Source of the DNA: Escherichia coli
GTDB lineage: Bacteria; Pseudomonadota; Gammaproteobacteria; Enterobacterales; Enterobacteriaceae
Length of the DNA stretch: 64,000 nucleotides
Assembly: GCF_013122565.1 (NCBI RefSeq)
Contig: NZ_CP053258.1
Direction: 5' to 3' (one strand)
Shown here: piece by piece, positions 30,320 to 56,838 of the stretch
Layout: every line of letters starts with the position of its first letter
How positions within the stretch are numbered: the first letter of the stretch is position 1
The notes under the pieces: model-generated
What the model was told of the DNA's origin: nothing
The model's database searches: none
Seen by the model: only the letters and a program-made list of their open reading frames with translations
Made by a program: the position numbers and the translations under genes

Positions 30320-30328
30320 TTCTCACCC

Positions 30329-31993: not shown

Positions 31994-32011
31994 AAATCTG
32001 CCTCAGAGAAT

Positions 32012-37885: not shown

Positions 37886-37896
37886 AGAGACGTGAC

Positions 37897-38976: not shown

Positions 38977-39037
38977 AAACGAAAAGTCTGATAAAAGCTA
39001 TACTTAACGAACAGCTTTCGCGACTTAGGAAAGGGAC

Positions 39038-39964
39038 ATGATGCGTCGTGTAAATATTCTTTGCTCATTTGCTCTGCTTTTTGCCAGCCATACTAGCCTG
39101 GCGGTAACCTATCCATTACCTCCAGAGGGTAGCCGTTTAGTGGGGCAGTCGCTTACTGTAACTGTTCCTGATCACAATACCCAGCCGCTGGAGACTTTTG
39201 CCGCACAATACGGGCAAGGGTTAAGTAACATGCTTGAAGCGAACCCGGGCGCTGATGTTTTTTTGCCGAAGTCTGGCTCGCAACTCACCATTCCGCAGCA
39301 ACTGATTTTGCCCGCCACTGTTCGTAAAGGGATTGTGGTTAACGTCGCTGAGATGCGTCTTTATTACTACCCGCCAGACAGTAATACTGTGGAAGTCTTT
39401 CCTATTGGTATCGGCCAGGCTGGGCGAGAAACCCCGCGTAACTGGGTGACTACCGTTGAACGTAAACAAGAAGCACCAACCTGGACGCCAACGCCGAACA
39501 CTCGGCGCGAATATGCGAAACGAGGGGAGAGTTTGCCCGCATTTGTTCCTGCGGGGCCCGATAATCCCATGGGGCTGTACGCGATTTATATTGGCAGGTT
39601 GTATGCCATCCATGGTACCAATGCCAATTTTGGTATTGGACTTCGGGTAAGTCAGGGCTGTATTCGTCTGCGCAATGACGATATCAAGTATCTGTTTGAT
39701 AATGTTCCTGTAGGTACTCGTGTGCAAATTATCGACCAGCCAGTAAAATACACCACTGAACCAGATGGCTCGAACTGGCTGGAAGTTCATGAGCCGCTGT
39801 CGCGCAATCGTGCAGAATATGAGTCTGACCGAAAAGTGCCATTGCCTGTAACCCCATCTTTGCGGGCGTTTATCAACGGGCAAGAAGTTGATGTGAATCG
39901 CGCAAATGCTGCGTTGCAACGACGATCGGGAATGCCTGTGAATATCAACCGTAACGGATTTTGA
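39038..39964 (+). CDS. ldtA: L,D-transpeptidase (YkuD domain), LdtA/ErfK
   Basis: Signal peptide plus YkuD catalytic motif [24 protein letters not shown]. Confidence 0.93.
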
Positions 39965-40137
39965 CATTCAAAACGTCTGGTTTTTCGGTCTGAGTAAGCA
40001 TTACGTCATGCAGAACAGGTTGTTTCGAATCATACAAATCATAATTTTCTTCTCATATGCGCATCTCTTATGAGCATAATCGTTATACTCTTCTGATTTA
40101 TACATGTTTGCTGATGACATGATCAATGGAAAAGAGA

Positions 40138-41103
40138 ATGACGAAACAGAAAAAAAACAGCCGCTGGCAGGGTTACGATCCTCGCTACATATACTCGCTC
40201 GTGGTCAGACGTTATTTTGCGGATATGAAAACCAAGATTGAGATTGCAGAGGAGCTTGGCGTTTCCCGCTTTAAAGTTGCCAGATTGATCGATGAGGCGA
40301 TCGAACAGGATTACGTGAGGTTTATCTTCCCTAAGCAGCAAGCGATGGATGAAGAAATCGCCAATAATCTACGGAAAAAATTTCATCTGGAAGATGCAAT
40401 TGTTCTTTCAGTTGCTGAATCCTGGACGACGCAAGAAGAACTCAATCACAAATTGGGTGAAGTCACCGCTGAATATCTTATGCAATCTCTTCATGAAGGT
40501 ATGAAAGTGGGGATCGCCTGGGGACGTGTATTATCAAGCACGGTCAGTAAGTTGAGCAAGTTGCCTCCTTTAGACGTTGTGCAGTTATCTGGCGTACATC
40601 CGGGGATAGAGTTTAGTCAAGGGCCAATAGATCTTATTCATAAGATCGCTGCCATTTCGCAGGGAAAAGCGCACCCAATGTACGTGCCGATGTGGGTCGA
40701 TGACGAAGAGCTTGCTGCCAGACTGGCAGGTGATCCTGCGGTATTAGATACACAGCAATATTACTCACAGTTGGATGTGGTTATCACCGGGATAGGTGAC
40801 TGGAAATCAGGTTCTTCAAGCTTGTATAAAATATTTCCGGATACCTGGTGCGAAGCTTTGTTTCAACAAGATATCGCTGCGGATGTGTGTATCTCGTTGG
40901 TCAACAGGGAAGGGAAGATTCTTCATAGTCCTATTGAACGTCTGGGATTTGGCATTTCGACGGATCAACTACAAAAAGCCAAAAAAGTGATTGGTGTCGC
41001 TGGAGGAGAAGAAAAATATGAAGGCATTCTTGCTTCGCTGAAATCCGGACTTTTGAATGTCTTAATTACTGATTTTGATACGGCCATTAAACTTCTGGAT
41101 TAA
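40138..41103 (+). CDS. SorC/DeoR(Bsu)-family transcriptional regulator with sugar-phosphate-binding domain
   Basis: N-terminal HTH (KIEIAEELGVSRFKVARLI) and C-terminal SorC-type sugar-binding domain; ATG 40138 preceded by AAGAGA; first gene of the island. Confidence 0.8.
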   Translation: MTKQKKNSRWQGYDPRYIYSLVVRRYFADMKTKIEIAEELGVSRFKVARLIDEAIEQDYVRFIFPKQQAMDEEIANNLRKKFHLEDAIVLSVAESWTTQEELNHKLGEVTAEYLMQSLHEGMKVGIAWGRVLSSTVSKLSKLPPLDVVQLSGVHPGIEFSQGPIDLIHKIAAISQGKAHPMYVPMWVDDEELAARLAGDPAVLDTQQYYSQLDVVITGIGDWKSGSSSLYKIFPDTWCEALFQQDIAADVCISLVNREGKILHSPIERLGFGISTDQLQKAKKVIGVAGGEEKYEGILASLKSGLLNVLITDFDTAIKLLD

Positions 41104-41154
41104 TAGCCATATCAGTGAAGAAAGGGCAGTACCGCTGATTCTGCCCTTTTAATT

Positions 41155-41613
41155 TCAGGATGCTGCGAGCGTATCCTCTACATATTTAGCCACGTGCGTT
41201 GCAGGTAAATTGCGGCAAGTCTCAACAAAGGCGTTATCCTGAAACAGTGTGAATAAACGACGCAATATCGACATATGTTGATCACTGGTGGCAAATGCCA
41301 GGTTAAACATAATGCTACAATCAACTGTTAAATCAGCATCTTCCATTTGCCCGAAAGTGACATCATTGGCGAAACGAACAATACTGATACTGTTTACATT
41401 TACCAGCGTGTAATCGGCATGGGGAATGGCGATACCCTGACCGTTTGCCATCATTAGTCCTGTCGGATAGCTTTTTTCACGTTCCAGGCAGGCGTCAATG
41501 TATTCTGCAGTGATGTAGCCTTTTTCCAATAATTGCGTACCGGCAAAGGTGATCGCAGTTTGATAGTCACTGATGCTGTTATCAACATCATTCACCAGAA
41601 TTTCAAGTTTCAT
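41155..41613 (-). CDS. PTS enzyme IIA component (PTS_EIIA_2, fructose/mannitol/galactitol type)
   Basis: 152 aa with phospho-His motif GIAIPHA. Confidence 0.85.
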   Translation of the reverse strand: MKLEILVNDVDNSISDYQTAITFAGTQLLEKGYITAEYIDACLEREKSYPTGLMMANGQGIAIPHADYTLVNVNSISIVRFANDVTFGQMEDADLTVDCSIMFNLAFATSDQHMSILRRLFTLFQDNAFVETCRNLPATHVAKYVEDTLAAS

Positions 41614-41623
41614 TGCACACCTG

Positions 41624-41908
41624 TTATTTCAACATCTCTTCTTTAACTGCAGCGAAAATCTCATCTTCGCCCAGACCTGTCAGTAATCCAGCGCCAACGA
41701 TGACACGAGTAGTAATGGCCGGGTTATCGAGTTTGGTCGATGAAACCACCAGGTCATAGCTGTTGAAGGTATCGCTGGTGCATGCCATTAACGAAGATTT
41801 ATCGACTTGCGCTTCAATTTTCTCTTCTTTCAGGAAGTCCTGCAGTACAGAGACCATGATGGAAGATGAGGCAATTCCGTTTCCGCAAACTACTAAGATT
41901 TTTTTCAT
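41624..41908 (-). CDS. PTS enzyme IIB component (galactitol/ascorbate type)
   Basis: 94 aa; N-terminal KILVVCGNGIASS with phospho-Cys. Confidence 0.85.
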   Translation of the reverse strand: MKKILVVCGNGIASSSIMVSVLQDFLKEEKIEAQVDKSSLMACTSDTFNSYDLVVSSTKLDNPAITTRVIVGAGLLTGLGEDEIFAAVKEEMLK

Positions 41909-41931
41909 TTGATTATTCCTCTGTAAAAGAT

Positions 41932-43302
41932 TTAAAGCGCTTTTTCCAAATCCGTTTCAATCTGGCGACGTGATTTTTGTTTAATTAAGTATCCAATAGA
42001 TAACAAAAGGATACCTGCCATCAAATAGCCAATGATTCCAACATGGCTCAGGGCGGCAAACAGACCAGTAAATGGATTCGCTGACGGGTTAAGTGAAGAG
42101 TACATTACGCTGGCATCCGGGTTTGTACCAAATTTCTGGAAGACTTCGTTGGTAGCCGGTGCCATCCACGACGCAATATACAGACCACCACCGAACAAAA
42201 TGATCGAGGTCACCCAGGTGCGAATAATGTTGCCATTAAAAACAGGTACCATGCAGGCAATAAAAAACACAAACTGAGAGAGGTCACCCAGTGGCATAAC
42301 GCGGTTGCCGGGCAAGATCACGGCGAGGATCACAATGACCGGGATCAGTAATAATGCAGGGGCGATAACTGATGGATGACCCACAATCAGAGCAGTGTCC
42401 ATACCAACAGTGATTTGACGATCCGGGAACCGTTTGACCAGTTTTTTGCGTGCTACGTTGGAAAGCGGAACAAGTCCTTCCATCATGATAGAGGTCATAC
42501 GTGGTAACAGAAGCATGACCGCAGCCAGATACATCCCTAACTGTAGGCTGGCGATTATGGTGTGGTATGGGGATTTCCAGCCATAACCACAAAAGCCCAA
42601 CAAAATACCAATAATAAAACCAACCATAGTTGGATCGCCGAGAATGCCAAACCGTTTTTGAATAGTTTCGGCGGTCACATTCAGATTACGGAAGCCTGGG
42701 ATGCGATCATAAATCCAGTTGAATGGATAAGCGAAAAGTAAGTAGGTATTGGCAACCGGGTGAGAGATCGCAACACCTTTTGGCAGGTTAAAGAATTTTT
42801 CGTTATTTTTAGCACCAAGATCGGCAGCGATCAGCGCCCAGACATGGAATAGCGCGGCGGTCAATGCGCCATACAGGAAACTACCAGAATAGACGCCAAC
42901 AATTGCCCCCATTGACGCATTTTGATGAAGGTTGAAAACATCAACGTTAACACAGTCAGTCAGGCGGGCGACCAGCATTGCAATATTTACCGCAACACAG
43001 AGGGGAATAATGATAGCGCCCATGCTGGAGCCAAATCCCATAACCGCAGTCGCTGCGCCACCAACATCGATGGCACTGAGCGAGGAACCTGTTGCTTCTG
43101 CTAATCCGGTGACTGCCGGTTGCATTTTTTCCAGCATCAGTTTGATGGTCATGGTTAGCGCAATGAAACCAATGCCTACTTTGATGGCAGACGAGATACA
43201 TTCAGAAAGAGGACGGCCAAGTATCTTCATCAGTACCAGGAAGATGACCGGGATAAATATAAAATTTCCCAGATCGTTTATAAATTGCGTGATCAGTTCC
43301 AT
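41932..43302 (-). CDS. PTS enzyme IIC permease (galactitol-class)
   Basis: 456 aa polytopic membrane protein; GatC/SgcC-like. Confidence 0.85.
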   Translation of the reverse strand: MELITQFINDLGNFIFIPVIFLVLMKILGRPLSECISSAIKVGIGFIALTMTIKLMLEKMQPAVTGLAEATGSSLSAIDVGGAATAVMGFGSSMGAIIIPLCVAVNIAMLVARLTDCVNVDVFNLHQNASMGAIVGVYSGSFLYGALTAALFHVWALIAADLGAKNNEKFFNLPKGVAISHPVANTYLLFAYPFNWIYDRIPGFRNLNVTAETIQKRFGILGDPTMVGFIIGILLGFCGYGWKSPYHTIIASLQLGMYLAAVMLLLPRMTSIMMEGLVPLSNVARKKLVKRFPDRQITVGMDTALIVGHPSVIAPALLLIPVIVILAVILPGNRVMPLGDLSQFVFFIACMVPVFNGNIIRTWVTSIILFGGGLYIASWMAPATNEVFQKFGTNPDASVMYSSLNPSANPFTGLFAALSHVGIIGYLMAGILLLSIGYLIKQKSRRQIETDLEKAL

Positions 43303-43305
43303 ACA

Positions 43306-43842
43306 TTAACCCTCAGATTTTTCATCATCTGGTCGGAAACCCATATTCCAGCGTACATCAGCGGGCTTAACCAGCAATGCATTATCGTTACGTTCAGCTT
43401 CTAGTAAGTTCTTTTTAGAATTTTCTCTGGCGGTGGTGAAGTCGAATGGGTTATCCAACCATGCATCGACAATCATTTTGCTGTATTCGAGATCGTTGAC
43501 CCGGCAACCCAGTCCAATAACTTGTGCGTTATTGCTGAGTCGCGCCCGCTTTGCGGAGTAGGGGTTAGTAACCGCAACGGCTCTTATGCCCCAGTGTTTG
43601 TTGATCTGACAAGTAAAGCCAATGCCAGTCCCACAAATGTAAATTCCCAGACGGCACTCATCGCGTTGAATAATGCCTGCCATTTCGTCGGCCAGACGCG
43701 CGAAGTTATTGACACCTTGTTCCTTACATGTGACGGGATCGTACACGATCTCCATGTTTTTCTCTTCTATGAGGTATTTTTTTATCTCCTCTTTACGTGC
43801 AAAACCTACATCATCGCTTGCGATAGCAATCTTTGTTTTCAT
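43306..43842 (-). CDS. RpiB/LacA/LacB-family sugar-phosphate isomerase
   Basis: 178 aa; KIAIASDDVGF start and active-site CGTGIG motif; first gene of the minus-strand PTS operon. Confidence 0.8.
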   Translation of the reverse strand: MKTKIAIASDDVGFARKEEIKKYLIEEKNMEIVYDPVTCKEQGVNNFARLADEMAGIIQRDECRLGIYICGTGIGFTCQINKHWGIRAVAVTNPYSAKRARLSNNAQVIGLGCRVNDLEYSKMIVDAWLDNPFDFTTARENSKKNLLEAERNDNALLVKPADVRWNMGFRPDDEKSEG

Positions 43843-44190
43843 TTCATTTTGCCTGTCGTTAAGTAACTAAAGCCAAGTATGCTGTTGGTAAATATTGGTT
43901 GTCAATTGAGATCTAAATCACAAAATTTATAACTGATTGATTTTTAATGAATTAAAAACCAATAAAAACAAATAAAAAATAAATTAAGCCAATTAAAACA
44001 AAGTAGGCTTGCACAAGCACTTTGCAATTAATAATAAAAACACATTAAATATCAATCATATATATGAATTGCCAAACATTGTCTTTATTGGGCTTATTTG
44101 TACTTTCTACAGTTAGTGTTTGTTTTTGTTTGCATCATCTGTGCTATGCTTGGCGTTTTCTAAGATGGGCAATAGATTTCAGGAGGAAGG

Positions 44191-44946
44191 ATGTATCTGG
44201 TTGATGAAAGGCGAAAGTTAATACTTGAAGACTTAATGTCGGCAGGTACGGTCTATGTCAGTGATCTTGCACGAAAGTATGAAGTAACGTATGAGACCAT
44301 CAGGAAAGATTTGACCCATCTTGAACAAAAAGGGCTGCTGATCAAAAGCCATGGTGGGGCGACTTTAAAGCAAAGGGCCATAGAGCATCCCTTTCAGGTC
44401 AGGGAAAAAGAAAATAACTCTTATAAGAAGGCGATAGCTCGTAAAGCGCTTGATTTCATTCCGCCTAATAGTTCGATGATTATCGGTACGGGCAGTACCA
44501 CTTTTGAGCTGGCTAACCTGTTATGTATGAAGTCTGGGTTTAAAATCTTCACAGATTCGCTCCCCGTTGCCAGTGTGTTGATTGAATCTGACAATCAGGT
44601 TTTTCTCTTTGGCGGCGAACTGCGTAGAAAGAGTTCCTCAGTGTTTGGGGGGTGGGCGGTATCTATGATCAACGATATACATGTTGATCTCTGTTTCATT
44701 GGAACCGACGGCTTTAGTAACATGACTGGTCCATCGACGCCTTCTTCTTCTGATGCGTTTTTGGATCGCACGATAATTTCGCACTCAGACAAAAAATATA
44801 TCCTCGGTGATTACACCAAGTTTGAGCGCAGCAGTTTGTTTAAGATCTGCGACTGGTCGGAGATCACCGCCCTTATTACCAACGATCATGCCGACAAAGA
44901 GGGGATTGCCGAAGTCGCAAAATACACGTCAGTAATAACCTGTTAG
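44191..44946 (+). CDS. DeoR-family transcriptional regulator
   Basis: 251 aa; N-terminal DeoR HTH (RRKLILEDLMSAGTVYVSDLARKYEVTYETIRKDL) and C-terminal DeoR-C sensor domain; AGGAGG Shine-Dalgarno. Confidence 0.85.
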   Translation: MYLVDERRKLILEDLMSAGTVYVSDLARKYEVTYETIRKDLTHLEQKGLLIKSHGGATLKQRAIEHPFQVREKENNSYKKAIARKALDFIPPNSSMIIGTGSTTFELANLLCMKSGFKIFTDSLPVASVLIESDNQVFLFGGELRRKSSSVFGGWAVSMINDIHVDLCFIGTDGFSNMTGPSTPSSSDAFLDRTIISHSDKKYILGDYTKFERSSLFKICDWSEITALITNDHADKEGIAEVAKYTSVITC

Positions 44947-45123
44947 AACTCCCTACAACACGCCTTCTCCCTTCGAATCAGCTTTGCCAAATGTAATCAT
45001 TTCCAAATTATCAAGTGAGCATCCATGGTGATGCTTGCTTAGCGCCCTTTATTGAATGCATCCTCTGCATATTGCCAGTTGCACCTCATTTTTTGCGAAG
45101 AAATCATTTTTTGAATCACGGTT

Positions 45124-45262
45124 TGCTCATATGAGCATAAATGCTGTCGCCATTATGTGCTTTTTTGTGATCTGGATTTAATTTCTCAGATCTCGTCATT
45201 TATCCACAGGATCGTTGTGCTATAACTGCTCATATGAATATTGTTCAATGCTCATGTGAGCA
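45124..45262. promoter_or_regulatory. three copies of a TGCTCATATGAGCA-type palindromic operator upstream of the second PTS operon
   Basis: TGCTCATATGAGCA at 45124..45137 (perfect 14-bp palindrome), TGCTCATATGAATA at 45227..45240, TGCTCATGTGAGCA at 45249..45262. Confidence 0.6.
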
Positions 45263-45284
45263 TTGTGGGGTGAGGGGGAAGGAT

Positions 45285-45728
45285 ATGATATCGATCAGTG
45301 TTGCCGATGGTGCGGGACTACAGAACTACGATGCCGTGCTTGAACATATTTATAACACGCATCGTGAAACGAATACGGTGAAAGAGAGCTGGCTCAATGC
45401 TATGCGTAAACGCGAAGCGGAATATCCGACAGGAATAGAACTGGAAGGTTATTCTATCGCTATACCACACTGTGATAGTGAACATGCGAATCAACCGGCT
45501 ATTTATATCATCCGTCTGCCAGACGCAATACCTGTGAACAGGGCTGATGAAGATGGAATATTGTGGGTCAGACTCGTCGTTAATCTTATTGTTACGGATC
45601 CTGCTGACCAGCTTCGATTGTTAAAGTCATTATTTAACCATCTCCAAAATGAAGAATTTTACCAAAACTTACTGACACTTCCCGTCGATGATGCAAAAGC
45701 ACTTTTTGTGTCCAAAATAATCCAATAG
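45285..45728 (+). CDS. PTS enzyme IIA component (PTS_EIIA_2)
   Basis: Phospho-His motif SIAIPHC; ATG 45285 preceded by a GGGGGAAGGA ribosome-binding site; ORF-track start 45234 is probably an upstream extension. Confidence 0.85.
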   Translation: MISISVADGAGLQNYDAVLEHIYNTHRETNTVKESWLNAMRKREAEYPTGIELEGYSIAIPHCDSEHANQPAIYIIRLPDAIPVNRADEDGILWVRLVVNLIVTDPADQLRLLKSLFNHLQNEEFYQNLLTLPVDDAKALFVSKIIQ

Positions 45729-45746
45729 TAAAAACTGGAGTTTATT

Positions 45747-46040
45747 ATGATTAATATTCTTGTTGCTTGTGGTAGCGGTGTCGCTACATCTACGCTTGCT
45801 GCTGATGAAGTGAAGTCAGTATGTGCTGAATATGGTATTACGGCATTTAAAATCAACAAATGCAGTATGGCTGAACTTTCTTCTGAGATGGCTCATGCAG
45901 ATATTGTACTCACAACTAATAACTATAAAGGTGATATTGGGAAACCACATATGAGTGTTGCAGGTTTTGTAACGGGTATTAATGAAGGAGCATTACGCAA
46001 GAAATTAGGAGAGTTATTAACTGAATTAGCAAATAGCTAA
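45747..46040 (+). CDS. PTS enzyme IIB component (galactitol type)
   Basis: 97 aa; INILVACGSGVATS phospho-Cys motif. Confidence 0.85.
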   Translation: MINILVACGSGVATSTLAADEVKSVCAEYGITAFKINKCSMAELSSEMAHADIVLTTNNYKGDIGKPHMSVAGFVTGINEGALRKKLGELLTELANS

Positions 46041-46060
46041 ACCTGACAGGAATAATAAAA

Positions 46061-47314
46061 ATGGAAATGTTGAAAAATTTAATGGAAACCATCACCGGAA
46101 TGGGGGCAACTGCAATACTGCCGCTGGTGATATTTATTTTAGGTCTGGTGTTCAGAATGAAACCAGGTGCCGCGATCAAGTCGGGCATCACAGTCGGTAT
46201 TGGTTTTATTGGTTTAGGTTTGGTTGTTGGTTTATTAAATAGTTCATTACAGCCAGCTATTGAGTATTACTCAAAAGTAGGTAGTGGTTTTACGGTTGCA
46301 GATATTGGTTGGCCAGCAGTCGGTGCTGCTGCATGGGTAGCACCTTTTGCCGCATTAGTGATACCAGTTGGCATCGTACTTAACCTGATACTGGTGCGCC
46401 TGAAATTAACCAAAACGTTAAATGTTGATATCTGGAACTATATGCATTTTTTAGTTCCGGGCGCTCTGGCATATTTTGTGTTCGACAGTTTTATCATCGG
46501 CTTCTCTGTCGCGGTGGCTTTGAGTATTGCGGCTCTGTTTATTGGCGATTTGATTGCGCCCAGATGGCAAAAATATTATGGACTCGAGGGAACAACCTGT
46601 ACCACGATGATTCATATCGGCTGGACTCTACCGTTCGCCTGGGTAGTAAATAAAATCATTGATTACATCCCAGGGTTAAATAAGTTAGATGTTGATTTAA
46701 ACAGCGTGCAAAAACGCCTGGGTGTCTTTGGTGAACCTGCAATTATCGGTGTTATCGTTGGCGCATTACTCGGAGTTTTAACGAAACAGGCAATTACCAC
46801 AATTGTTCCCATGGCGATGGGGGTTGCTGGCGTAATGGTATTATTGCCTAAAGTGGTCGGTGTGCTGATGGAAGGTCTTAACCCGATTGGGAAAAGTGCT
46901 AAAGAAATCATGCAAAAACAGATGGGTAAAGATGCAGAATTAAACATCGGTATGGATTGTGCACTGGCGTTGGGGGATCCGGCTACGGTCACCGTGACAG
47001 TAATTACCATTCCTTTAACCATGCTATGTGCTCTGGTATTACCTGATATTAAGATCTTCCCAATCGGCGTATTGATGTCAATTATTTATATGACCACCAT
47101 GACCGTAATGGCGAGCAACGGTAACGTGATTCGTTCGATTATCTCGACCTTGTTATTCTGCGTTGTAGTGATGTATTTAGGCGGTTATGTCGCACCAGGG
47201 GCAACGCAATTTTTAGCTGGAGCCGGTGTAGGCTTGCAAGGACAAGGTACTGATTTTGTATTAACCGGCCCGTGGGAAATTTTAACCTATTGGTTGAGTA
47301 CCGTATTACATTGA
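46061..47314 (+). CDS. PTS enzyme IIC permease (galactitol-class)
   Basis: 417 aa polytopic membrane protein; GatC-like. Confidence 0.85.
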   Translation: MEMLKNLMETITGMGATAILPLVIFILGLVFRMKPGAAIKSGITVGIGFIGLGLVVGLLNSSLQPAIEYYSKVGSGFTVADIGWPAVGAAAWVAPFAALVIPVGIVLNLILVRLKLTKTLNVDIWNYMHFLVPGALAYFVFDSFIIGFSVAVALSIAALFIGDLIAPRWQKYYGLEGTTCTTMIHIGWTLPFAWVVNKIIDYIPGLNKLDVDLNSVQKRLGVFGEPAIIGVIVGALLGVLTKQAITTIVPMAMGVAGVMVLLPKVVGVLMEGLNPIGKSAKEIMQKQMGKDAELNIGMDCALALGDPATVTVTVITIPLTMLCALVLPDIKIFPIGVLMSIIYMTTMTVMASNGNVIRSIISTLLFCVVVMYLGGYVAPGATQFLAGAGVGLQGQGTDFVLTGPWEILTYWLSTVLH

Positions 47315-47336
47315 TTTAATAATCTGGAGTTTTAAC

Positions 47337-47981
47337 ATGGCAAAAATATTACCTTCTATATTTGGCGCGGATATTTTACGCCTGAAAGATGAAATTCATT
47401 TTCTGGAAGAGGAACAAACCGAAATATTGCACGTTGATTTAATGGATGGCACTTATGTCAGTAATATTGCCTTTGGCCCAAATCAAATAGCAGCAATGAA
47501 AAAAGCCAGTTCGATGATCTTTGATGTGCACATGATGCTGGCAAATCCTGAGCGACATATTGATGATGTAATCAATACCGGGGCGGAGATGATTTCTGTA
47601 CATTATGAATCGACGCCACATGTACATTATATTATTCAAAAAATCAAAAAAGCGGGTCGCAAAGCAGGTGTTGTGCTTAATCCTGGGACACCTGAATCTG
47701 TCATCGAGTATTTATTAGATGATATTGATTATATATTGTTAATGACAATTAACCCAGGGCAACCAGGCCAGACATTTATTCATAAAAGTCTGGAGAAAAT
47801 CCGTAATACCAAAAAAATGATATCTGGCAGAGATATTCAAATTGAAGTGGATGGTGGCGTTAATCTTGATAATGTAAAACAAGTTAAAGAAGCAGGGGCT
47901 GACCTTATTGTTGTTGGTGGTGCCTTATTTAACAAACAGCCTCGTGAAAGTTATCAGGCATTGAAAATCGCTATTCAGTGA
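47337..47981 (+). CDS. ribulose-phosphate 3-epimerase family protein (Rpe/AlsE/SgcE-like)
   Basis: 214 aa TIM-barrel epimerase; HVDLMDG and IEVDGG motifs. Confidence 0.85.
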   Translation: MAKILPSIFGADILRLKDEIHFLEEEQTEILHVDLMDGTYVSNIAFGPNQIAAMKKASSMIFDVHMMLANPERHIDDVINTGAEMISVHYESTPHVHYIIQKIKKAGRKAGVVLNPGTPESVIEYLLDDIDYILLMTINPGQPGQTFIHKSLEKIRNTKKMISGRDIQIEVDGGVNLDNVKQVKEAGADLIVVGGALFNKQPRESYQALKIAIQ

Positions 47982-48078
47982 TCACAATCTAAAAATTTCA
48001 CATCCAGTTAAGTGAGGTTTTCGATTTCATATCGGGAGGAAAACCTCAGCTAAAAAATGTCTTTAATGGAGAAAAGTA

Positions 48079-48831
48079 ATGAGTAATTTTGCAGGTAAAG
48101 TGGTTTTAGTTACCGGAGGTGCTCACGGTATTGGCAAAGGGATAGCTAAACAATTTGCTGATCGTGGTGCACATACTGTTATTGTTGACTATAACGAAGA
48201 GAACGGCAAGGCCACTGCAGCAGAGTTAACTTTTGGCGATGTTAAATCGCTGTTTGTTAAAACAGATGTCTCTGATCCACAGGCATTAGTGGATGTACGG
48301 GAAAAAGTATTTGCTACCTTTGGTCGTATTGATGTGTTGATATTAAATGCCGGTGTGGCATTTGCCAATAAAGTTAACAATATTTCTTTTGAGGAATGGA
48401 ATAAGACTATCGCAATTAATTTATCGGGATTATTTAATACCGTTAAGGCGTTTTATGATGATTTCCTGACAAATAAGGGATCTATTGTTTATATCTCATC
48501 GGGATCAGCACTTTCGGGGACTGGAGGCGGTGTGAGTTATCCAGCCAGTAAAGCGGGAGGCGAAGGGTTGATTCGCGGTCTGGCGAAGGAGTTAGGACCA
48601 AAAGGCGTCAATGTTAATGCGATTGCTCCCCGCTTAATAGACACCGGAGAGATGATGCGGGTCAACTATCCGACACAAGCCGATTTAGACGCTGTCCTGG
48701 AAAAAATACCCGTCCGTCGTCTGGGAACTATCGATGATGTGGCTAACCTGGCAATATTTTTGGCAGATAAAGATAACTCTTATATTCAGGGACAAACCAT
48801 TTTAATGGATGGTGGCCGGACTATTGCTTAA
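48079..48831 (+). CDS. short-chain dehydrogenase/reductase (SDR)
   Basis: 250 aa; TGGAHGIGKGIA Rossmann motif and YPASK catalytic Tyr-x3-Lys. Confidence 0.85.
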   Translation: MSNFAGKVVLVTGGAHGIGKGIAKQFADRGAHTVIVDYNEENGKATAAELTFGDVKSLFVKTDVSDPQALVDVREKVFATFGRIDVLILNAGVAFANKVNNISFEEWNKTIAINLSGLFNTVKAFYDDFLTNKGSIVYISSGSALSGTGGGVSYPASKAGGEGLIRGLAKELGPKGVNVNAIAPRLIDTGEMMRVNYPTQADLDAVLEKIPVRRLGTIDDVANLAIFLADKDNSYIQGQTILMDGGRTIA

Positions 48832-48846
48832 AAAGGGAGAGAAAAA

Positions 48847-49407
48847 ATGAGTGTTCAGGAAAATACTATTAATATTCTGCATGAATTAGAGAGTAATGCG
48901 CTGAAGATTGACGATGCTCAGGCTTCACAGTTCATTTCGCAAATCAGAAATGCCCGGCATATTTTTTTGCAGGGAGCTGGTCGCAGTGGCATTGCTATTC
49001 GCGCTTTTGCTAATCGCTTGCTGCATTTAGGTTTTTCAGTAAGCGTTGTGGGAGAAATATCATCACCGCATACTCAACCTGGAGATCTATTAATTATTGG
49101 GTCAGGCAGTGGTGAAACTACCAGTTTGAAAAGTCTGGCACAAAAAGCAGTTGATAGCGGAGTAAACGTCGCTCTGGTAACTATGAAAGCTGATTCAACG
49201 ATCGGTAAATTAGCTCAATCTGTGTTGGTACTACCAGGAAGTGTGAAAGACGATAACAATCGTGTTGCAGGCGCTTTCGCGCAACCAATGGGCTCAGCTT
49301 TTGAGCAACTCTGCTTTATTACTTATGATGCAATTGTTCTGGAGTTGATGTCTGAACTGGGTGAAAGCAGTGCCACAATGTTTACCCGACACGCTGATCT
49401 GGAATGA
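48847..49407 (+). CDS. SIS-domain sugar-phosphate isomerase (6-phospho-3-hexuloisomerase-like)
   Basis: 186 aa single SIS domain (LQGAGRSGIAIRAF...IGSGSGET). Confidence 0.75.
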   Translation: MSVQENTINILHELESNALKIDDAQASQFISQIRNARHIFLQGAGRSGIAIRAFANRLLHLGFSVSVVGEISSPHTQPGDLLIIGSGSGETTSLKSLAQKAVDSGVNVALVTMKADSTIGKLAQSVLVLPGSVKDDNNRVAGAFAQPMGSAFEQLCFITYDAIVLELMSELGESSATMFTRHADLE

Positions 49408-49425
49408 CTAAAAAGTTGGTAATTA

Positions 49426-49462
49426 GAAAGCAAAAAGCCTGCTAGAAAGCAGGCTTTTTTGA
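49426..49462. terminator. bidirectional terminator between the island operon and asnV
   Basis: AAAAAGCCTGCTAGAAAGCAGGCTTTTTT hairpin. Confidence 0.75.
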
Positions 49463-49465
49463 ATT

Positions 49466-49541
49466 TGGCTCCTCTGACTGGACTCGAACCAGTGACATAC
49501 GGATTAACAGTCCGCCGTTCTACCGACTGAACTACAGAGGA
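49466..49541 (-). tRNA. asnV: tRNA-Asn (GUU)
   Basis: 76-nt reverse complement of TCCTCTGTAGTTCAGTCGGTAGAACGGCGGACTGTTAATCCGTATGTCACTGGTTCGAGTCCAGTCAGAGGAGCCA; anticodon loop CTGTTAA. Confidence 0.95.
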
Positions 49542-49559
49542 ATCGTGTGAACGGGGCGC

Positions 49560-49588
49560 ATATTAATGGCAGTGCATGGTGATGTCAA
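49560..49588 (-). promoter_or_regulatory. sigma-70 promoter of asnV
   Basis: Minus strand TTGACA, 17 bp spacer, TAATAT, about 20 bp upstream of the tRNA 5' end. Confidence 0.6.
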
Positions 49589-49795
49589 AGGGTGAAATGC
49601 ATTTTTTTGTTTGTTTGCTGTCAATTTCAACAAAGTGATGAGATTTCAATCTTATTGGTTATGAACCATCGTGGTGCATACTCTCCTTTTATGGGGCAGG
49701 GGAACGCGATTGCTGATAAAAAGAACCAATGACGAATCTATCATAATCTCTTATTTGACAGTTGGTTAGCTTGTACATCAACGCCAAAATAAAAC

Positions 49796-49811
49796 TGGCA
49801 AGCATCTTGCA
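49796..49811 (+). promoter_or_regulatory. sigma-54 promoter of nac
   Basis: TGGCAAGCATCTTGCA matches the -24/-12 consensus TGGCAC-N5-TTGCA; nac is known to be sigma-54/NtrC dependent. Confidence 0.7.
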
Positions 49812-49866
49812 ATCTGGTTGTAAGTAATGGCGGCACTTGGGCCGATTCTTAAAAACCGGAGGCAAC

Positions 49867-50784
49867 ATGAACTTCAGACGCCTGAAATACTTCGTAAAAA
49901 TTGTAGATATTGGTAGCCTGACGCAGGCTGCTGAAGTATTGCATATCGCACAACCAGCGCTCAGCCAGCAGGTTGCCACACTCGAAGGTGAGTTAAATCA
50001 ACAACTTTTGATTCGCACAAAACGGGGCGTTACGCCAACAGACGCCGGAAAAATTCTCTATACCCATGCGCGGGCCATTTTACGTCAGTGTGAGCAGGCC
50101 CAACTGGCGGTGCATAACGTTGGTCAGGCATTATCGGGGCAAGTCTCGATTGGCTTTGCGCCAGGAACCGCTGCGTCATCCATCACCATGCCCTTATTAC
50201 AGGCGGTTCGCGCTGAATTCCCGGAGATCGTTATCTATCTTCATGAAAATAGCGGTGCAGTGCTTAACGAAAAACTGATAAATCACCAACTCGATATGGC
50301 GGTAATTTATGAGCATTCCCCTGTGGCTGGGGTATCCAGTCAGGCTTTGCTGAAAGAAGATCTTTTCCTGGTAGGAACTCAAGATTGCCCGGGGCAAAGC
50401 GTCGATGTTAATGCTATTGCGCAAATGAACCTCTTTCTCCCCAGTGATTACAGTGCTGTTAGACTTCGTGTTGATGAGGCTTTTTCCCTACGGCGGCTCA
50501 CGGCAAAAGTCATTGGTGAAATTGAGTCTATTGCCACGCTTACCGCAGCGATTGCCAGCGGCATGGGCGTTGCAGTATTACCCGAATCGGCCGCGCGTTC
50601 GTTATGTGGCGCAGTAAATGGGTGGATGTCACGCATTACCACGCCTTCCATGAGTCTCTCTTTGTCATTAAATTTACCCGCCAGAGCGAACTTATCGCCA
50701 CAGGCACAGGCAGTGAAAGAGTTGTTAATGTCAGTGATTAGTTCCCCAGTGATGGAAAAAAGGCAGTGGCAATTGGTGAGCTAA
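49867..50784 (+). CDS. nac: nitrogen assimilation control protein (LysR family)
   Basis: Translation MNFRRLKYFVKIVDIGSLTQAAEVLHIAQPALSQQV... (305 aa). Confidence 0.95.
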   Translation: MNFRRLKYFVKIVDIGSLTQAAEVLHIAQPALSQQVATLEGELNQQLLIRTKRGVTPTDAGKILYTHARAILRQCEQAQLAVHNVGQALSGQVSIGFAPGTAASSITMPLLQAVRAEFPEIVIYLHENSGAVLNEKLINHQLDMAVIYEHSPVAGVSSQALLKEDLFLVGTQDCPGQSVDVNAIAQMNLFLPSDYSAVRLRVDEAFSLRRLTAKVIGEIESIATLTAAIASGMGVAVLPESAARSLCGAVNGWMSRITTPSMSLSLSLNLPARANLSPQAQAVKELLMSVISSPVMEKRQWQLVS

Positions 50785-50885
50785 GCGTTATATCGGGATG
50801 GAATAAGATGCGGGTTTTTATTATTTGTTATGCCGGGCATTAGACTTTAACAATAACGGGAAATCTGAACTGCCCGGAGTTTACC

Positions 50886-51836
50886 GTGAATTTCCAACAA
50901 CTAAAGATAATCCGCGAGGCTGCACGTCAGGATTACAACCTGACAGAGGTTGCGAATATGCTTTTTACCTCACAGTCAGGCGTCAGCCGTCATATTCGAG
51001 AACTGGAGGATGAACTTGGCATCGAAATATTTGTTCGACGAGGTAAGCGACTGCTGGGCATGACTGAACCGGGCAAAGCATTACTGGTCATTGCAGAACG
51101 TATTCTGAATGAAGCCAGTAATGTTCGTCGGCTTGCAGACCTGTTTACCAACGATACGTCTGGCGTTCTCACTATTGCAACGACGCATACTCAGGCACGT
51201 TATAGCCTGCCAGAGGTTATTAAAGCTTTTCGCGAACTTTTCCCGGAGGTTCGGCTCGAGCTAATCCAGGGGACGCCACAGGAAATTGCGACGTTGTTGC
51301 AAAATGGTGAAGCTGATATTGGTATCGCCAGCGAGCGTTTGAGTAATGACCCGCAGCTCGTCGCCTTCCCGTGGTTTCGTTGGCACCATAGTTTGCTTGT
51401 TCCACTCGATCATCCCTTGACGCAAATTACACCATTGACGCTGGAATCAATAGCGAAGTGGCCATTAATCACTTACCGACAGGGTATTACGGGGCGCTCA
51501 CGCATTGATGACGCATTTGCCCGCAAAGGTTTGCTGGCAGATATTGTATTAAGTGCGCAGGATTCTGATGTCATTAAAACCTATGTTGCTCTTGGGCTGG
51601 GGATCGGATTAGTTGCCGAACAATCCAGCGGTGAACAAGAGGAAAAGAATTTAATCCGCCTGGATACGCGGCATCTTTTCGATGCTAATACTGTCTGGTT
51701 GGGACTCAAGCGAGGACAACTTCAGCGTAACTATGTCTGGCGCTTTCTGGAACTTTGTAATGCAGGACTTTCAGTTGAGGATATCAAGCGGCAGGTGATG
51801 GAAAACAGTGAAGAGGAAATTGATTATCAGATATAG
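50886..51836 (+). CDS. cbl: CysB-like LysR-family regulator Cbl
   Basis: 316 aa MNFQQLKIIREAARQDYNLTEVANMLFTSQSGVSRHI...; GTG start. Confidence 0.95.
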   Translation: MNFQQLKIIREAARQDYNLTEVANMLFTSQSGVSRHIRELEDELGIEIFVRRGKRLLGMTEPGKALLVIAERILNEASNVRRLADLFTNDTSGVLTIATTHTQARYSLPEVIKAFRELFPEVRLELIQGTPQEIATLLQNGEADIGIASERLSNDPQLVAFPWFRWHHSLLVPLDHPLTQITPLTLESIAKWPLITYRQGITGRSRIDDAFARKGLLADIVLSAQDSDVIKTYVALGLGIGLVAEQSSGEQEEKNLIRLDTRHLFDANTVWLGLKRGQLQRNYVWRFLELCNAGLSVEDIKRQVMENSEEEIDYQI

Positions 51837-51837
51837 C

Positions 51838-51868
51838 AAAAAGCCCGCTATAAAAGCGGGCTTTTCAG
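51838..51868. terminator. bidirectional terminator between cbl and asnU
   Basis: AAGCCCGCTATAAAAGCGGGCTTTT hairpin. Confidence 0.75.
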
Positions 51869-51873
51869 AAATT

Positions 51874-51949
51874 TGGCTCCTCTGACTGGACTCGAACCAG
51901 TGACATACGGATTAACAGTCCGCCGTTCTACCGACTGAACTACAGAGGA
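51874..51949 (-). tRNA. asnU: tRNA-Asn (GUU)
   Basis: Identical 76-nt sequence to the copy at 49466..49541. Confidence 0.95.
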
Positions 51950-51965
51950 ATCGCTGTTGAGGCAC

Positions 51966-51993
51966 ATCTTAACGGCGAAAAATCTTTTGTCAA
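51966..51993 (-). promoter_or_regulatory. sigma-70 promoter of asnU
   Basis: Minus strand TTGACA, 16 bp spacer, TAAGAT. Confidence 0.5.
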
Positions 51994-52109
51994 ACCCGAT
52001 TTTTAAATTTCCCAACTGTTTGCCGTTTCTATCAACAGTTTGTTGCATTTGCAGACAATTTGTTGGCGAAAATCTTTGCAGCTTTGCTGATTCTCCCTCA
52101 TTATTTGAA

Positions 52110-53597
52110 ATGTGGTTTCACTTTCTGCAATTAAGGTCGGCTTTGAATATCTCCTCTGCTTTACGCCAGGTTGTTCACGGCACTCGCTGGCACGCTAAAC
52201 GCAAGAGCTACAAAGTGTTGTTCTGGCGCGAGATAACCCCGCTTGCTGTTCCTATCTTCATGGAGAATGCCTGTGTCCTGTTGATGGGGGTTCTGAGCAC
52301 TTTTCTGGTCAGCTGGCTGGGAAAAGATGCGATGGCCGGCGTGGGATTGGCGGACAGCTTCAATATGGTCATTATGGCTTTTTTTGCAGCTATCGATCTT
52401 GGTACTACTGTCGTTGTGGCATTTAGTCTCGGTAAGCGGGATCGACGACGAGCGAGGGTGGCGACGCGGCAGTCATTGGTGATCATGACGTTGTTTGCCG
52501 TACTGTTGGCAACGCTTATTCATCATTTTGGCGAACAAATTATTGATTTCGTCGCGGGTGATGCCACGACAGAAGTTAAAGCACTGGCGTTGACTTATCT
52601 GGAGCTGACGGTACTCAGTTATCCAGCAGCTGCCATCACTCTTATTGGTAGCGGGGCACTTCGTGGTGCAGGGAATACGAAAATACCGCTATTGATTAAC
52701 GGTAGCCTGAATATTCTTAATATTATTATTAGCGGCATATTGATTTACGGCCTTTTCTCCTGGCCGGGACTGGGATTTGTCGGGGCTGGGTTGGGTTTAA
52801 CCATTTCTCGTTATATTGGCGCAGTTGCAATTTTGTGGGTGCTGGCGATTGGTTTTAATCCTGCGCTAAGGATTTCGTTAAAGAGCTATTTTAAACCGCT
52901 GAATTTTAGCATTATCTGGGAAGTCATGGGGATTGGTATTCCAGCAAGTGTCGAATCAGTATTATTTACCAGTGGTCGGTTATTAACCCAAATGTTCGTT
53001 GCCGGGATGGGAACCAGTGTTATTGCCGGAAATTTTATCGCGTTTTCAATTGCGGCTCTTATCAACTTACCCGGAAGTGCGCTCGGCTCTGCTTCTACGA
53101 TCATTACAGGCCGAAGGTTGGGAGTAGGGCAGATAGCTCAAGCAGAGATTCAGTTGCGGCATGTGTTCTGGCTGTCTACTCTTGGATTAACGGCCATCGC
53201 CTGGCTAACGGCTCCCTTTGCCGGGGTTATGGCATCGTTTTACACCCAGGATCCACAGGTTAAACATGTCGTTGTGATTCTGATTTGGCTAAATGCTTTA
53301 TTTATGCCTATTTGGTCCGCCTCATGGGTGCTACCCGCTGGATTTAAAGGTGCTCGTGATGCCCGTTACGCCATGTGGGTTTCGATGTTGAGCATGTGGG
53401 GTTGTCGGGTTGTAGTCGGTTATGTGCTGGGCATCATGCTTGGCTGGGGTGTGGTTGGTGTCTGGATGGGAATGTTTGCCGACTGGGCTGTGCGGGCCGT
53501 GCTGTTTTACTGGCGAATGGTTACTGGACGTTGGCTATGGAAATACCCTCGATCCGAGCCGCAAAAGTGTGAAAAAAAGCCAGTTGTGTCGGAATAA
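52110..53597 (+). CDS. yeeO: MATE-family multidrug/flavin efflux transporter
   Basis: 495 aa from MWFHFLQLRSALNISS...; 12 transmembrane segments; the ORF-track start 51957 would overlap the tRNA and is rejected. Confidence 0.9.
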   Translation: MWFHFLQLRSALNISSALRQVVHGTRWHAKRKSYKVLFWREITPLAVPIFMENACVLLMGVLSTFLVSWLGKDAMAGVGLADSFNMVIMAFFAAIDLGTTVVVAFSLGKRDRRRARVATRQSLVIMTLFAVLLATLIHHFGEQIIDFVAGDATTEVKALALTYLELTVLSYPAAAITLIGSGALRGAGNTKIPLLINGSLNILNIIISGILIYGLFSWPGLGFVGAGLGLTISRYIGAVAILWVLAIGFNPALRISLKSYFKPLNFSIIWEVMGIGIPASVESVLFTSGRLLTQMFVAGMGTSVIAGNFIAFSIAALINLPGSALGSASTIITGRRLGVGQIAQAEIQLRHVFWLSTLGLTAIAWLTAPFAGVMASFYTQDPQVKHVVVILIWLNALFMPIWSASWVLPAGFKGARDARYAMWVSMLSMWGCRVVVGYVLGIMLGWGVVGVWMGMFADWAVRAVLFYWRMVTGRWLWKYPRSEPQKCEKKPVVSE

Positions 53598-53650
53598 ACG
53601 ACAAAATGCAGATTATTTCAGCAAACGATTTCAAATTTAAAAAACAGGCT

Positions 53651-53679
53651 TTGACATTGTGGGTGGGCATCGCTAATAT
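53651..53679 (+). promoter_or_regulatory. sigma-70 promoter of asnW
   Basis: TTGACA (53651..53656), 17 bp spacer, TAATAT (53674..53679), 19 bp upstream of the tRNA. Confidence 0.65.
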
Positions 53680-53697
53680 TCGCCTCGTTCTCACGAT

Positions 53698-53773
53698 TCC
53701 TCTGTAGTTCAGTCGGTAGAACGGCGGACTGTTAATCCGTATGTCACTGGTTCGAGTCCAGTCAGAGGAGCCA
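53698..53773 (+). tRNA. asnW: tRNA-Asn (GUU)
   Basis: TCCTCTGTAGTTCAGTCGGTAGAACGGCGGACTGTTAATCCGTATGTCACTGGTTCGAGTCCAGTCAGAGGAGCCA ending in CCA. Confidence 0.95.
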
Positions 53774-53834
53774 AATTTTAGTTTTGAGACATCTCTATGA
53801 GTCTCAAGGCAGTTAAAAAATAAAAATTATTTTT

Positions 53835-53872
53835 ACCCGGTTAGCTTGTAAAAAAGTGACCGGGTTTTTTGA
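53835..53872 (+). terminator. rho-independent terminator downstream of asnW
   Basis: ACCCGGT...GACCGGGTTTTTT hairpin with T-run. Confidence 0.65.
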
Positions 53873-54223
53873 TTTCTGTGTTTCGTGCGCTTAATCGAGT
53901 CTCATGTTTCATTGAGCAAATTGCCCCCAACAGACATCACGATTCGCAAGTTCAAAAACTTCGTTCCGTGAAGTACCGTACAAAGATAAAGAAAAAATAC
54001 CTTACGCGGGATGTCGCTGTCGCGTCTTTATCGGGAAACTATACGTAATTGCCACTTTGTCTTCGGTAATCAGAAAAAGAAGACCTGCCATATTAATAAA
54101 TATTATTTCTCTGGGGACGGAGATTTTTTATAAGCAATATGACGAGTTAAACATTATATTTTTTATAAGGATTATATGAGATTAAAGAAATCTGCCATAA
54201 AAACAGATTTCTTTAAAATATAA

Positions 54224-54940: not shown

Positions 54941-55282
54941 TGGAATGATCTCCTCGAAAATTTATTTACATTACTGGTAAATCGTTAACATGTGTTAATT
55001 CGGCATATTATATCATAACAGGAAAAATCTCGTCTATTAGAAATAAAAATATTCTAAAGTCATAATCTTATATTTAATTTTATAAAAACTTATAATGTTG
55101 GTGGGGTTTTTTATAATTGTGTTTTGAAAGCATACTTGCTTTTAATATGTGGAAATCATTAAGACGATAATAAAACTCGTATCCGCCCAAGGAAGCAAAC
55201 AGCCCGCGTTTATTGCGGGCTATTTGCCAGATGTCTTACTTAATCCTTCACATCTATTTTTGATAAGAAGGTTCAGAACTTA

Positions 55283-56737: not shown

Positions 56738-56838
56738 GTGTGTCTCCTGTTCCATACAATTACCGCACATCCGATAGTATGTCACAGGAATGTGAAACAA
56801 AAGTGTAAGGCGAAGATCGGATGATCTTCGCCAGGCTA

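Follow-up and report, generated by a model that had tools for sequence, protein, structure and literature searches.

Three copies of one tRNA-Asn gene lie in mixed orientation around the regulator genes nac and cbl and the exporter gene yeeO of Escherichia coli, and an accessory sugar cassette adjoins one of these copies in the 64-kb window (the whole stretch of DNA that was analysed, 64,000 nucleotides). The locus raises the question of whether the repeated genes exchange with each other in natural genomes, and whether the cassette is an island that entered through a tRNA gene. It is very likely that the identical asn tRNA genes, each with its own promoter and terminator, are subject to homologous exchange and that the cassette was not inserted by an integrase. 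The tRNA cluster, its role as a recombination substrate and its role as an integration hotspot are already known. Our census of genomes added two small variants, an inversion of yeeO alone and a deletion of nac-cbl, for which no report was found in the literature searched.

Identity and arrangement of the tRNA-Asn genes

Exactly three tRNA genes were detected in the window by ARAGORN, all of them tRNA-Asn(GTT) with the GTT anticodon at position 34, and each matched the Rfam family RF00005 over its full length with 72.6 bits, where the gathering score is 29. Alignment showed that the 76 nt of asnV, asnU and asnW were identical and that their flanks differed directly outside, the exact shared run between the copies being 84-86 bp. 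The 25-mer of the tRNA 3' end occurred 3 times in the window, against 0.00 expected in shuffled sequences. The copies of K-12 are mutually identical, and those of the window matched them at 100% over 85 bp. These genes are three of the four identical paralogous tRNA-Asn(GUU) genes of E. coli; the fourth, asnT, lies just past the end of the window. An earlier note on this DNA, made from the letters alone, had placed three identical tRNA-Asn genes here under the names asnV, asnU and asnW; ARAGORN and Rfam agreed with their positions, the alignment with their identity and the synteny of K-12 with their names.

The counterpart of the window in E. coli K-12 lies at 2.04-2.07 Mb, and the part from 49415 to 63674 was colinear with it over 14.3 kb, with about 97% of the nucleotides identical. 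As in K-12, asnV adjoins nac, asnU lies between cbl and yeeO, and asnW lies between yeeO and yeeN, with the same spacings from each tRNA gene to its neighbours. The gene order amn-yeeN-asnW-yeeO-asnU-cbl-nac-asnV-ldtA, the orientations and the 76-nt tRNA sequence were shared between the two loci, whereas in the window an additional 9,474 bp separate ldtA from asnV and LdtA has another C-terminus. The annotation agreed with the earlier description of a direct pair (asnV and asnU) bracketing nac-cbl and an inverted pair (asnU and asnW) bracketing yeeO, and the colinearity and equal spacings bore out the statement that asnU and asnW are unoccupied.

Each of the three tRNA genes appears to be a monocistronic unit with its own predicted sigma-70-type promoter and intrinsic terminator, as had been proposed from a TTGACA promoter and a hairpin at each copy. 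These promoters and terminators are predictions from consensus scanning or from folding. The automatic scan, which applies rules for stem, loop and tail, overlooked the terminators of asnU and asnW, and folding revealed both. Of the two hairpins downstream of asnW, the second one (about 53835-53865, followed by U6) is the likely terminator in the folded model. The coordinates of all features are listed in Table 1.

Table 1. Features of the asn tRNA region and of the adjoining cassette, in window coordinates
Feature	Coordinates	Strand	Basis and remarks
ldtA with cassette-specific C-terminus (K-12 end ...MPVQISSGSRQMF, then stop)	39038..39964	+	Comparison with K-12
Accessory sugar-utilisation cassette, 9,474 bp	39941..49414		K-12 alignment; between ldtA and the asnV terminator
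asnV terminator, hairpin and U tract (predicted)	49432..49459	-	Scan and fold, -18 kcal/mol, z -5.3; between tRNA and cassette boundary
asnV, tRNA-Asn(GTT), 76 nt	49466..49541	-	ARAGORN, Rfam RF00005, K-12-like position relative to nac and ldtA
Segment deleted by asnV x asnU (nac-cbl and one tRNA copy)	49542..51949		Intact in the window
4.2-kb block inverted by asnV x asnW	49542..53697		Orientation in the window K-12-like
asnV promoter-like site, TTGACA-17-TAATAT (predicted)	49560..49588	-	Consensus scan, 10/12 matches
nac, LysR-type nitrogen assimilation regulator	49867..50784	+	RefSeq annotation of 98% identical locus, K-12; ATG at 49867
cbl, LysR-type regulator	50886..51836	+	ORF; annotation of 98% identical RefSeq locus and K-12
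asnU terminator, hairpin and U tract (predicted)	51838..51866	-	Fold, -19.5 kcal/mol, z -5.0
asnU, tRNA-Asn(GTT)	51874..51949	-	ARAGORN, Rfam RF00005; same sequence and same orientation as asnV
Segment inverted by asnU x asnW	51950..53697		Window in the common orientation
asnU promoter-like site, TTGACA-16-TAAGAT (predicted)	51966..51993	-	Consensus scan; within the asnU/asnW invertible segment
yeeO, MATE-family exporter (FMN/FAD exporter in K-12 annotation)	52110..53597	+	Annotation of 98% identical RefSeq locus and K-12; sequence
asnW promoter-like site, TTGACA-17-TAATAT (predicted)	53651..53679	+	Consensus scan; within the invertible segment
asnW, tRNA-Asn(GTT)	53698..53773	+	ARAGORN, Rfam RF00005; identical to asnU and asnV, inverted relative to both
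Two hairpins 3' of asnW	53781..53871	+	Fold, -33.9 kcal/mol, z -5.1

Recombination between the tRNA copies in E. coli genomes

The earlier note had regarded the copies as substrates for inversion or deletion, and 5,426 complete E. coli genomes were searched for the junctions that such exchanges predict. The native cbl-asnU-yeeO junction was found in 5,177 of the 5,426 genomes, and a second native-junction query gave 4,977. All of the predicted recombinant junctions were observed as well: that of the yeeO-only inversion (asnU x asnW) in 32 genomes (0.6%), that of the nac-cbl deletion (asnV x asnU) in 35, and that of the asnV x asnW inversion in 265, Nissle 1917 included, when queried from the yeeN side. 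Examples of each rearrangement were confirmed on annotated loci, with the repeats retained at the junctions. A rearrangement at exactly the predicted asn tRNA exchange junctions is thus present in about 6% of the complete E. coli genomes, and the comparison of gene order between strains that the earlier note had suggested revealed both the yeeO-only and the asnV x asnW inversions. The numbers 32, 35 and 265 refer to genomes and not to independent events; among the 265 and also among the 35, many genomes are probably clonal. Three annotation-verified strains with inverted yeeO diverged by 1.5-2.0% over 12.9 kb and therefore represent different backgrounds.

A query for the asnV x asnW inversion from the ldtA side (ldtA-tRNA-yeeO 3') matched SE15 only. 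This count was set aside as an undercount because the island of pks-positive strains is placed at the yeeO-adjacent tRNA gene, asnW (PMC8209727), and inversion of the block would, as we infer, move it to the side of ldtA.

Inversion between asnW and asnV has been described for UTI89 and CFT073 and validated by PCR (PMC6458436), and the 4,309-bp asnW-asnU-asnV region was reported to be inverted in pks-positive B2 strains (PMC8209727). The published event involves the same repeats and is of the same type as that in the 265 genomes of the census, whereas the window is non-inverted. The yeeO-only inversion and the nac-cbl deletion are obvious variants of it.

Repeated sequences are a classic source of misassembly, and the rearranged junctions could in principle be assembly artefacts generated by the repeated tRNA sequence. 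This explanation is almost certainly wrong, since the repeat is only 84-86 bp long and the same junctions recurred in dozens of genomes that differ in background and in the laboratory of origin. Ordinary short reads are longer than such a repeat, and the long reads of complete genomes span it easily. The PCR validation of the asnW/asnV inversion also argues against an artefact (PMC6458436).

With perfect identity over 84-86 bp, the tRNA copies very probably act as passive substrates for general homologous recombination, presumably dependent on RecA. Exchange between the inverted pairs, asnU/asnW and asnV/asnW, would flip the intervening DNA, and exchange between the direct pair, asnV/asnU, would lead to the loss of nac-cbl. 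The crossover is expected to fall within the identical tRNA sequence, where the sameness of the copies prevents an exact mapping. Since the predicted promoters belong to the segments and the terminators do not, every product would keep intact, promoter-driven tRNA genes. An inversion would turn yeeO around, alone or together with cbl-nac, and change nothing else; it would probably be functionally neutral, while the deletion would cost one tRNA copy and two regulators.

An enzymatic route to the same junctions has also been weighed, in which the P4-type tyrosine integrases of HPI-, pks- and ICEEc1-like islands catalyse the inversions at attB cores in the tRNA 3' ends. The same attB sequence is present in all asn copies, and the asn tRNA genes are the integration sites of HPI and pks (PMC8209727). 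The asnV/asnW inversion was reported to be confined to B2 strains that are pks-positive and have pks at asnW, and it was suggested to be concurrent with pks insertion (PMC8209727), and UTI89, in which the inversion was seen in culture, has both islands (PMC6458436, PMC8209727). Against these observations, no integrase or island was present at any of the four asn tRNA genes in the three independent strains with inverted yeeO, and one of two strains with a clean nac-cbl deletion had no island nearby. The copies share considerably more identity than the minimum that RecA-mediated exchange requires, and recombination of attB with attB is, to our knowledge, not a normal integrase reaction. Integrase catalysis is therefore a very unlikely general explanation, although an integrase may have had a role in the asnV/asnW event specifically, given the link with pks acquisition drawn by Auvray et al.

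Homologous exchange is also preferred to a programmed invertible switch controlling the expression of yeeO or of tRNA-Asn. The yeeO segment is short, contains promoters and lies between inverted repeats, and the related inversion is dynamic in culture (PMC6458436), where it was found to be Fim-independent in UTI89. In fimS/hin-type switches a recombinase lies nearby and the inversion switches a promoter; at the yeeO segment, neither ORFs nor annotation revealed a recombinase gene within or beside it, and yeeO and both tRNA promoters travel with the segment, together with their own genes or with identical partners, so that no promoter is joined to or cut from a gene. The rarity of the inverted state among the genomes points in the same direction, and a switch of this kind is extremely unlikely.

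It is improbable, in our estimate, that the yeeO-only inversion and the nac-cbl deletion are undescribed recurrent polymorphisms with a phenotypic effect, kept by selection and not only neutral noise. If they were, the deletion would define natural nac/cbl double-null lineages with changed nitrogen and sulfur scavenging, and a flipped yeeO could have altered expression or suffer replication-transcription conflict. As natural regulator knockouts, the nac-cbl deletion lineages may be of interest to physiologists.

The sugar cassette beside asnV

Work on HPI and pks agrees with the description of asn tRNA loci as integration hotspots (PMC8209727); the asn genes are not named in Touchon 2009, and nothing relevant on a PTS cassette on the side of asnV was found in the literature searched. 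The earlier note was right in placing accessory DNA on the 3' side of asnV, and its implied reading of this DNA as a tRNA-targeted island found no support in the structure of the locus. K-12 homology extends 51 bp past the tRNA gene, and the cassette junction lies there, distal to the predicted terminator and not within the asnV 3' end. The other end of the cassette replaces the last 11 codons (33 nt) of ldtA. RefSeq annotation of the homologous locus showed no integrase or other mobility gene in the cassette, nor did NCBIfam scans of the 10 cassette proteins reveal one. Partial tRNA-3'-end direct repeats, which the earlier note had proposed to look for, were absent from the 64 kb: a 16-mer and a 25-mer of this end, with as many as 3 mismatches allowed, matched nothing but the three tRNA genes, and therefore no island of the integrase type has its boundaries in the window.

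These features bear on the possibility that the cassette is a decayed island that once entered the asnV 3' end by means of an integrase, which then disappeared together with the att repeats. The cassette does vary between strains and differ in base composition, as is typical of islands: it was present in 281 of the 5,426 genomes, and its GC content was 38-47%, as compared with 50-53% in cobST-ldtA. The 3' side of this tRNA family is a documented integration hotspot (PMC8209727), and integrase-bearing elements abut truncated copies of the cassette in some strains. Decay is nevertheless very unlikely, since mobility genes and 3'-end remnants are lacking, even with 3 mismatches allowed in 16 nt, and since the junctions lie beyond the terminator on one side and within the ldtA coding sequence on the other. 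Moreover, the 10 genes of the cassette are found in synteny, in unrelated surroundings, in Enterobacter, Citrobacter, Entomohabitans and also Providencia. When loci of other species were examined for an ancestral arrangement beside tRNA-Asn, tRNA-Asn, ldtA, nac or cbl lay near the cassette in none of 13 Enterobacterales loci. The cassette is thus best regarded as a horizontally acquired sugar-PTS catabolic module that probably entered by a route other than integrase insertion into a tRNA gene. Accessory DNA near a tRNA gene is no proof of tRNA-targeted integration, and none of the mechanistic hallmarks of such integration is present in the cassette at asnV.

Truncated copies, retaining 53%, 31%, 22% and 11% of the cassette, were considered as the end-point of a site-specific deletion near asnV. 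This was ruled out; the copies end at differing points, at junctions with IS1, IS5 or integrase-bearing elements.

The cassette shares its adjacency to asn tRNA genes, strain variability and low GC content with HPI, pks and ICEEc1/ICEKp-type elements, but it lacks a P4-type integrase and flanking direct repeats derived from the tRNA 3' end, its junction lies outside the tRNA gene, and its cargo is catabolic, as opposed to siderophore, genotoxin or conjugation genes. It consists of a SorC-type regulator, PTS IIA-IIB-IIC, an RpiB/LacAB isomerase, a DeoR regulator, a second PTS IIA-IIB-IIC, Rpe, an SDR and HxlB, with hxlB being the gene that adjoins asnV. The NCBIfam scans of the 10 proteins assigned both PTS systems to the galactitol family, with all PTS components below the equivalog cut-offs, and identified sugar-phosphate enzymes among the others. 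The gat and sgc loci are galactitol-family PTS sugar clusters of E. coli. Clusters of this type have galactitol-family EIIA, EIIB and EIIC, a DeoR-type regulator and an Rpe-like epimerase in common with the cassette, whereas the cassette differs from them in its duplicated PTS set and in the addition of HxlB (6-phospho-3-hexuloisomerase), the SDR and the RpiB/LacAB isomerase.

The three tRNA-Asn genes and their locus

Exactly three tRNA genes were called by ARAGORN in the 64-kb window, all of them tRNA-Asn, and each matched the Rfam tRNA model at 72.6 bits (gathering score 29). Alignment with 100-nt flanks showed that the 76 nt are identical across asnV, asnU, and asnW and that similarity drops just beyond, with exact identical runs of 84 bp (asnV/asnU), 86 bp (asnV/asnW), and 85 bp (asnU/asnW). 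The earlier note's observation of three identical genes was confirmed, as ARAGORN, Rfam, and the alignment agreed in every detail. Its claim that each copy has its own promoter and hairpin terminator also agreed with the predictions. Near-consensus sigma-70-type sites were predicted 5' of asnV (TTGACA-17-TAATAT), asnU (TTGACA-16-TAAGAT), and asnW (TTGACA-17-TAATAT), while folding predicted a stable hairpin with a U tract 3' of asnV (-18 kcal/mol) and asnU (-19.5 kcal/mol) and two hairpins 3' of asnW, with U6 after the second; the hairpin z was about -5 for all three genes.

The window corresponds, in mirror orientation, to 2.04-2.07 Mb of E. coli K-12 MG1655, where the order is amn, yeeN, asnW(-), yeeO(-), asnU(+), cbl(-), nac(-), asnV(+), ldtA(-), cobTSU. 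Positions 49415-63674 were colinear with K-12 (97.0% over 14.3 kb), and 36295-39940 aligned with cobU-ldtA; the gene names in the earlier note are therefore right. The window does not reach the fourth copy, asnT, which is located past yeeJ. Since the spacings from asnU to cbl (37 bp) and from asnW to yeeN (~450 bp) were the same as in K-12, asnU and asnW are unoccupied, as had been claimed. The sugar-utilisation cassette and the unoccupied asnU and asnW were contiguous in only 127 of 5,426 genomes, and the top genome match to 47000-56000 reached only 98.4% identity.

Positions of the features in the window
Feature	Position	Strand	Source
His operon leader	9246-9369		Rfam
STnc240, enterobacterial sRNA, upstream of plaP	11668-11742	+	Rfam, above gathering score
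Insert with pdu operon	18748-36415		comparison with PapM-32-1
STnc230, enterobacterial sRNA, between pduF and pocR	34486-34569	-	Rfam, above gathering score
Cobalamin riboswitch	35636-35810		
Sugar cassette	39941-49414		comparison with K-12
asnV, tRNA-Asn, anticodon GTT	49466-49541	-	ARAGORN
asnU, tRNA-Asn, anticodon GTT	51874-51949	-	ARAGORN
asnW, tRNA-Asn, anticodon GTT	53698-53773	+	ARAGORN
ORF at yeeL position	58470-59522		

Rearrangements between the tRNA-Asn copies

Native and hypothetical junction queries of ~900 bp were compared with 5,426 complete E. coli genomes, a genome being counted if at least 80% of the query lay in one place. The native cbl-asnU-yeeO 5' and yeeO 3'-asnW-yeeN side junctions were present in 5,177 and 4,977 genomes. 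The cbl-tRNA-yeeO 3' junction of an asnU-asnW inversion was found in 32, the ldtA-tRNA-yeeO 5' junction of an asnV-asnU deletion in 35, and the nac 5'-tRNA-yeeN side junction of an asnV-asnW inversion in 265 (Nissle 1917 among them). Altogether, rearrangements with exactly the predicted junctions occurred in ~6% of the genomes, counted as genomes rather than events. Together with annotated loci, these junctions bear out the proposal that the copies are substrates for inversion or deletion, and the suggested comparison of asn gene order and orientation between strains revealed inversions as well as nac-cbl deletion.

On annotation, yeeO was inverted in PigCaeca_1, PSJ-36, and O157:H16 Santai, with its strand flipped and the tRNAs and all flanks as before; these strains differed mutually by 1.5-2.0% over 12.9 kb and thus represent different backgrounds. 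Strains 2016C-3878 and MEI3O-23 had cleanly lost nac-cbl and one tRNA copy. The ldtA-side junction of the asnV-asnW inversion was found in SE15 only, where the nac-cbl-asnU-yeeO block is inverted (locus L007, 8401-13853). SE15 also carries an additional frameshifted 3' fragment of yeeO beside asnW, and duplication therefore accompanied or preceded its inversion. In pks-positive strains the pks island is at the yeeO-adjacent tRNA, asnW (PMC8209727), and we infer that the pks-bearing asnW lies on the ldtA side after block inversion.

Relative to the repeats, the three predicted promoters are internal and the three predicted terminators external, so a crossover inside the identical tRNA bodies would swap promoters between identical genes and leave all tRNA genes intact. 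The inversions should be near-neutral, as they also carry the region upstream of yeeO along with the gene; with the asnV-asnU deletion, one copy of tRNA-Asn and two regulators of the LysR type are lost. General homologous recombination between the copies is the simplest explanation. Catalysis by P4-type integrases of asn-targeting islands is weakened as an alternative, because in the three verified yeeO-inverted strains all four asn tRNA genes were free of integrases and islands, although an integrase could have acted in the asnV-asnW inversion, which is pks-associated (PMC8209727).

The recombination hypothesis is right, and the biology is already known. An asnW/asnV inversion in UTI89 was PCR-validated and independent of Fim recombinases, with the opposite orientation in CFT073 according to the authors (PMC6458436). 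Insertion of pks is documented at asnW, asnU, or asnV and of HPI at asnT, in keeping with asn tRNAs as island integration sites (PMC8209727). The general idea of recombination between asn copies is therefore known. For the yeeO-only inversion and the nac-cbl deletion no report was found in an incomplete literature search; each is an obvious variation on the known process.

The sugar cassette beside asnV

Relative to K-12, 37 bp, comprising the last 11 codons of ldtA and 4 bp (GAGC) past the stop codon, were replaced by 9,474 bp, and the K-12 LdtA C-terminus (...MPVQISSGSRQMF) gave way to a different 10-residue ending. The cassette encodes a SorC/DeoR-type regulator, two sets of galactitol-family PTS IIA-IIB-IIC, an RpiB/LacAB isomerase, a DeoR/AgaR-like regulator, and an SDR (annotation/NCBIfam), as well as a ribulose-phosphate 3-epimerase and HxlB, a 6-phospho-3-hexuloisomerase (above the TIGR01163 and TIGR03127 cut-offs). 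Its GC content was 38-47%, versus 50-53% for cobST-ldtA.

An island had been placed on the 3' side of asnV. Accessory DNA is indeed there, but tRNA integration did not hold up: annotation and NCBIfam scans found no integrase in the cassette, and the junction lies 51 bp past asnV, distal to its predicted terminator hairpin. The tRNA 3'-end 25-mer occurred three times (0.00 expected from shuffles), and searches of the 64-kb window for direct repeats of this end, as a 16-mer and a 25-mer with up to 3 mismatches allowed, returned only the three genes themselves. We conclude that the cassette is not a tRNA-integrated island and that asnV is occupied only positionally; a decayed island of that kind is a minor and quite improbable reading.

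The cassette was found in 281 of 5,426 genomes (nearly complete in 225), chromosomal in every case, and shorter versions were junctions of the cassette with IS1, IS5, or integrase-bearing elements. In several strains such elements were located at asnW or abutted a truncated cassette (2016C-3878, 9225-12683; loci L010 and L011). The 10-gene block was syntenic in Enterobacter wuhouensis, a Citrobacter sp., Entomohabitans, and Providencia vermicola, and a 6-gene form was present in Pseudocitrobacter, Erwinia, Brenneria, and Pantoea; in the other genera examined, tRNA-Asn, ldtA, nac, or cbl never lay beside it. The conclusion is that the cassette is a catabolic module, shared horizontally and next to asnV by chance in some E. 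coli strains. In Brenneria roseae (L020, 10558-10971) a short cassette ends ~340 bp from an opposite-strand tRNA-Thr(CGT), a geometry like that of hxlB and asnV, possibly by coincidence.

Other features of the window and related records

Compared with strain PapM-32-1, the window has a 17.7-kb insert with a minus-strand pdu (propanediol-utilisation) microcompartment operon, whose NCBIfam matches included PduV, RnfC-like PduS, aldehyde dehydrogenase, PduG, dehydratase large subunit, and PduB; the plus strand carries pduF and pocR. The cbi genes for cobalamin synthesis are apparently missing, and between the riboswitch and cobUST there is only a 168-aa ORF that matched no family. The plaP-sbcB gap is ~70 bp, versus 1.5 kb with tsuA and tsuB in PapM-32-1, and these thiosulfate uptake genes (yeeE/yeeD) are missing at 13249-13321. 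The yeeL position, a pseudogene in K-12, holds an intact 350-aa ORF with no NCBIfam match at E <= 1e-20, annotated in related strains as a family 9 glycosyltransferase. Matches to tRNA-Asn with ~14 bp of flank on each side also occurred in a few plasmid records, in NZ_CP196293.1 (5,969 bp) and at 12 further plasmid locations; these could be asn-adjacent DNA that was excised or mobilised, or else contigs that were misassigned.
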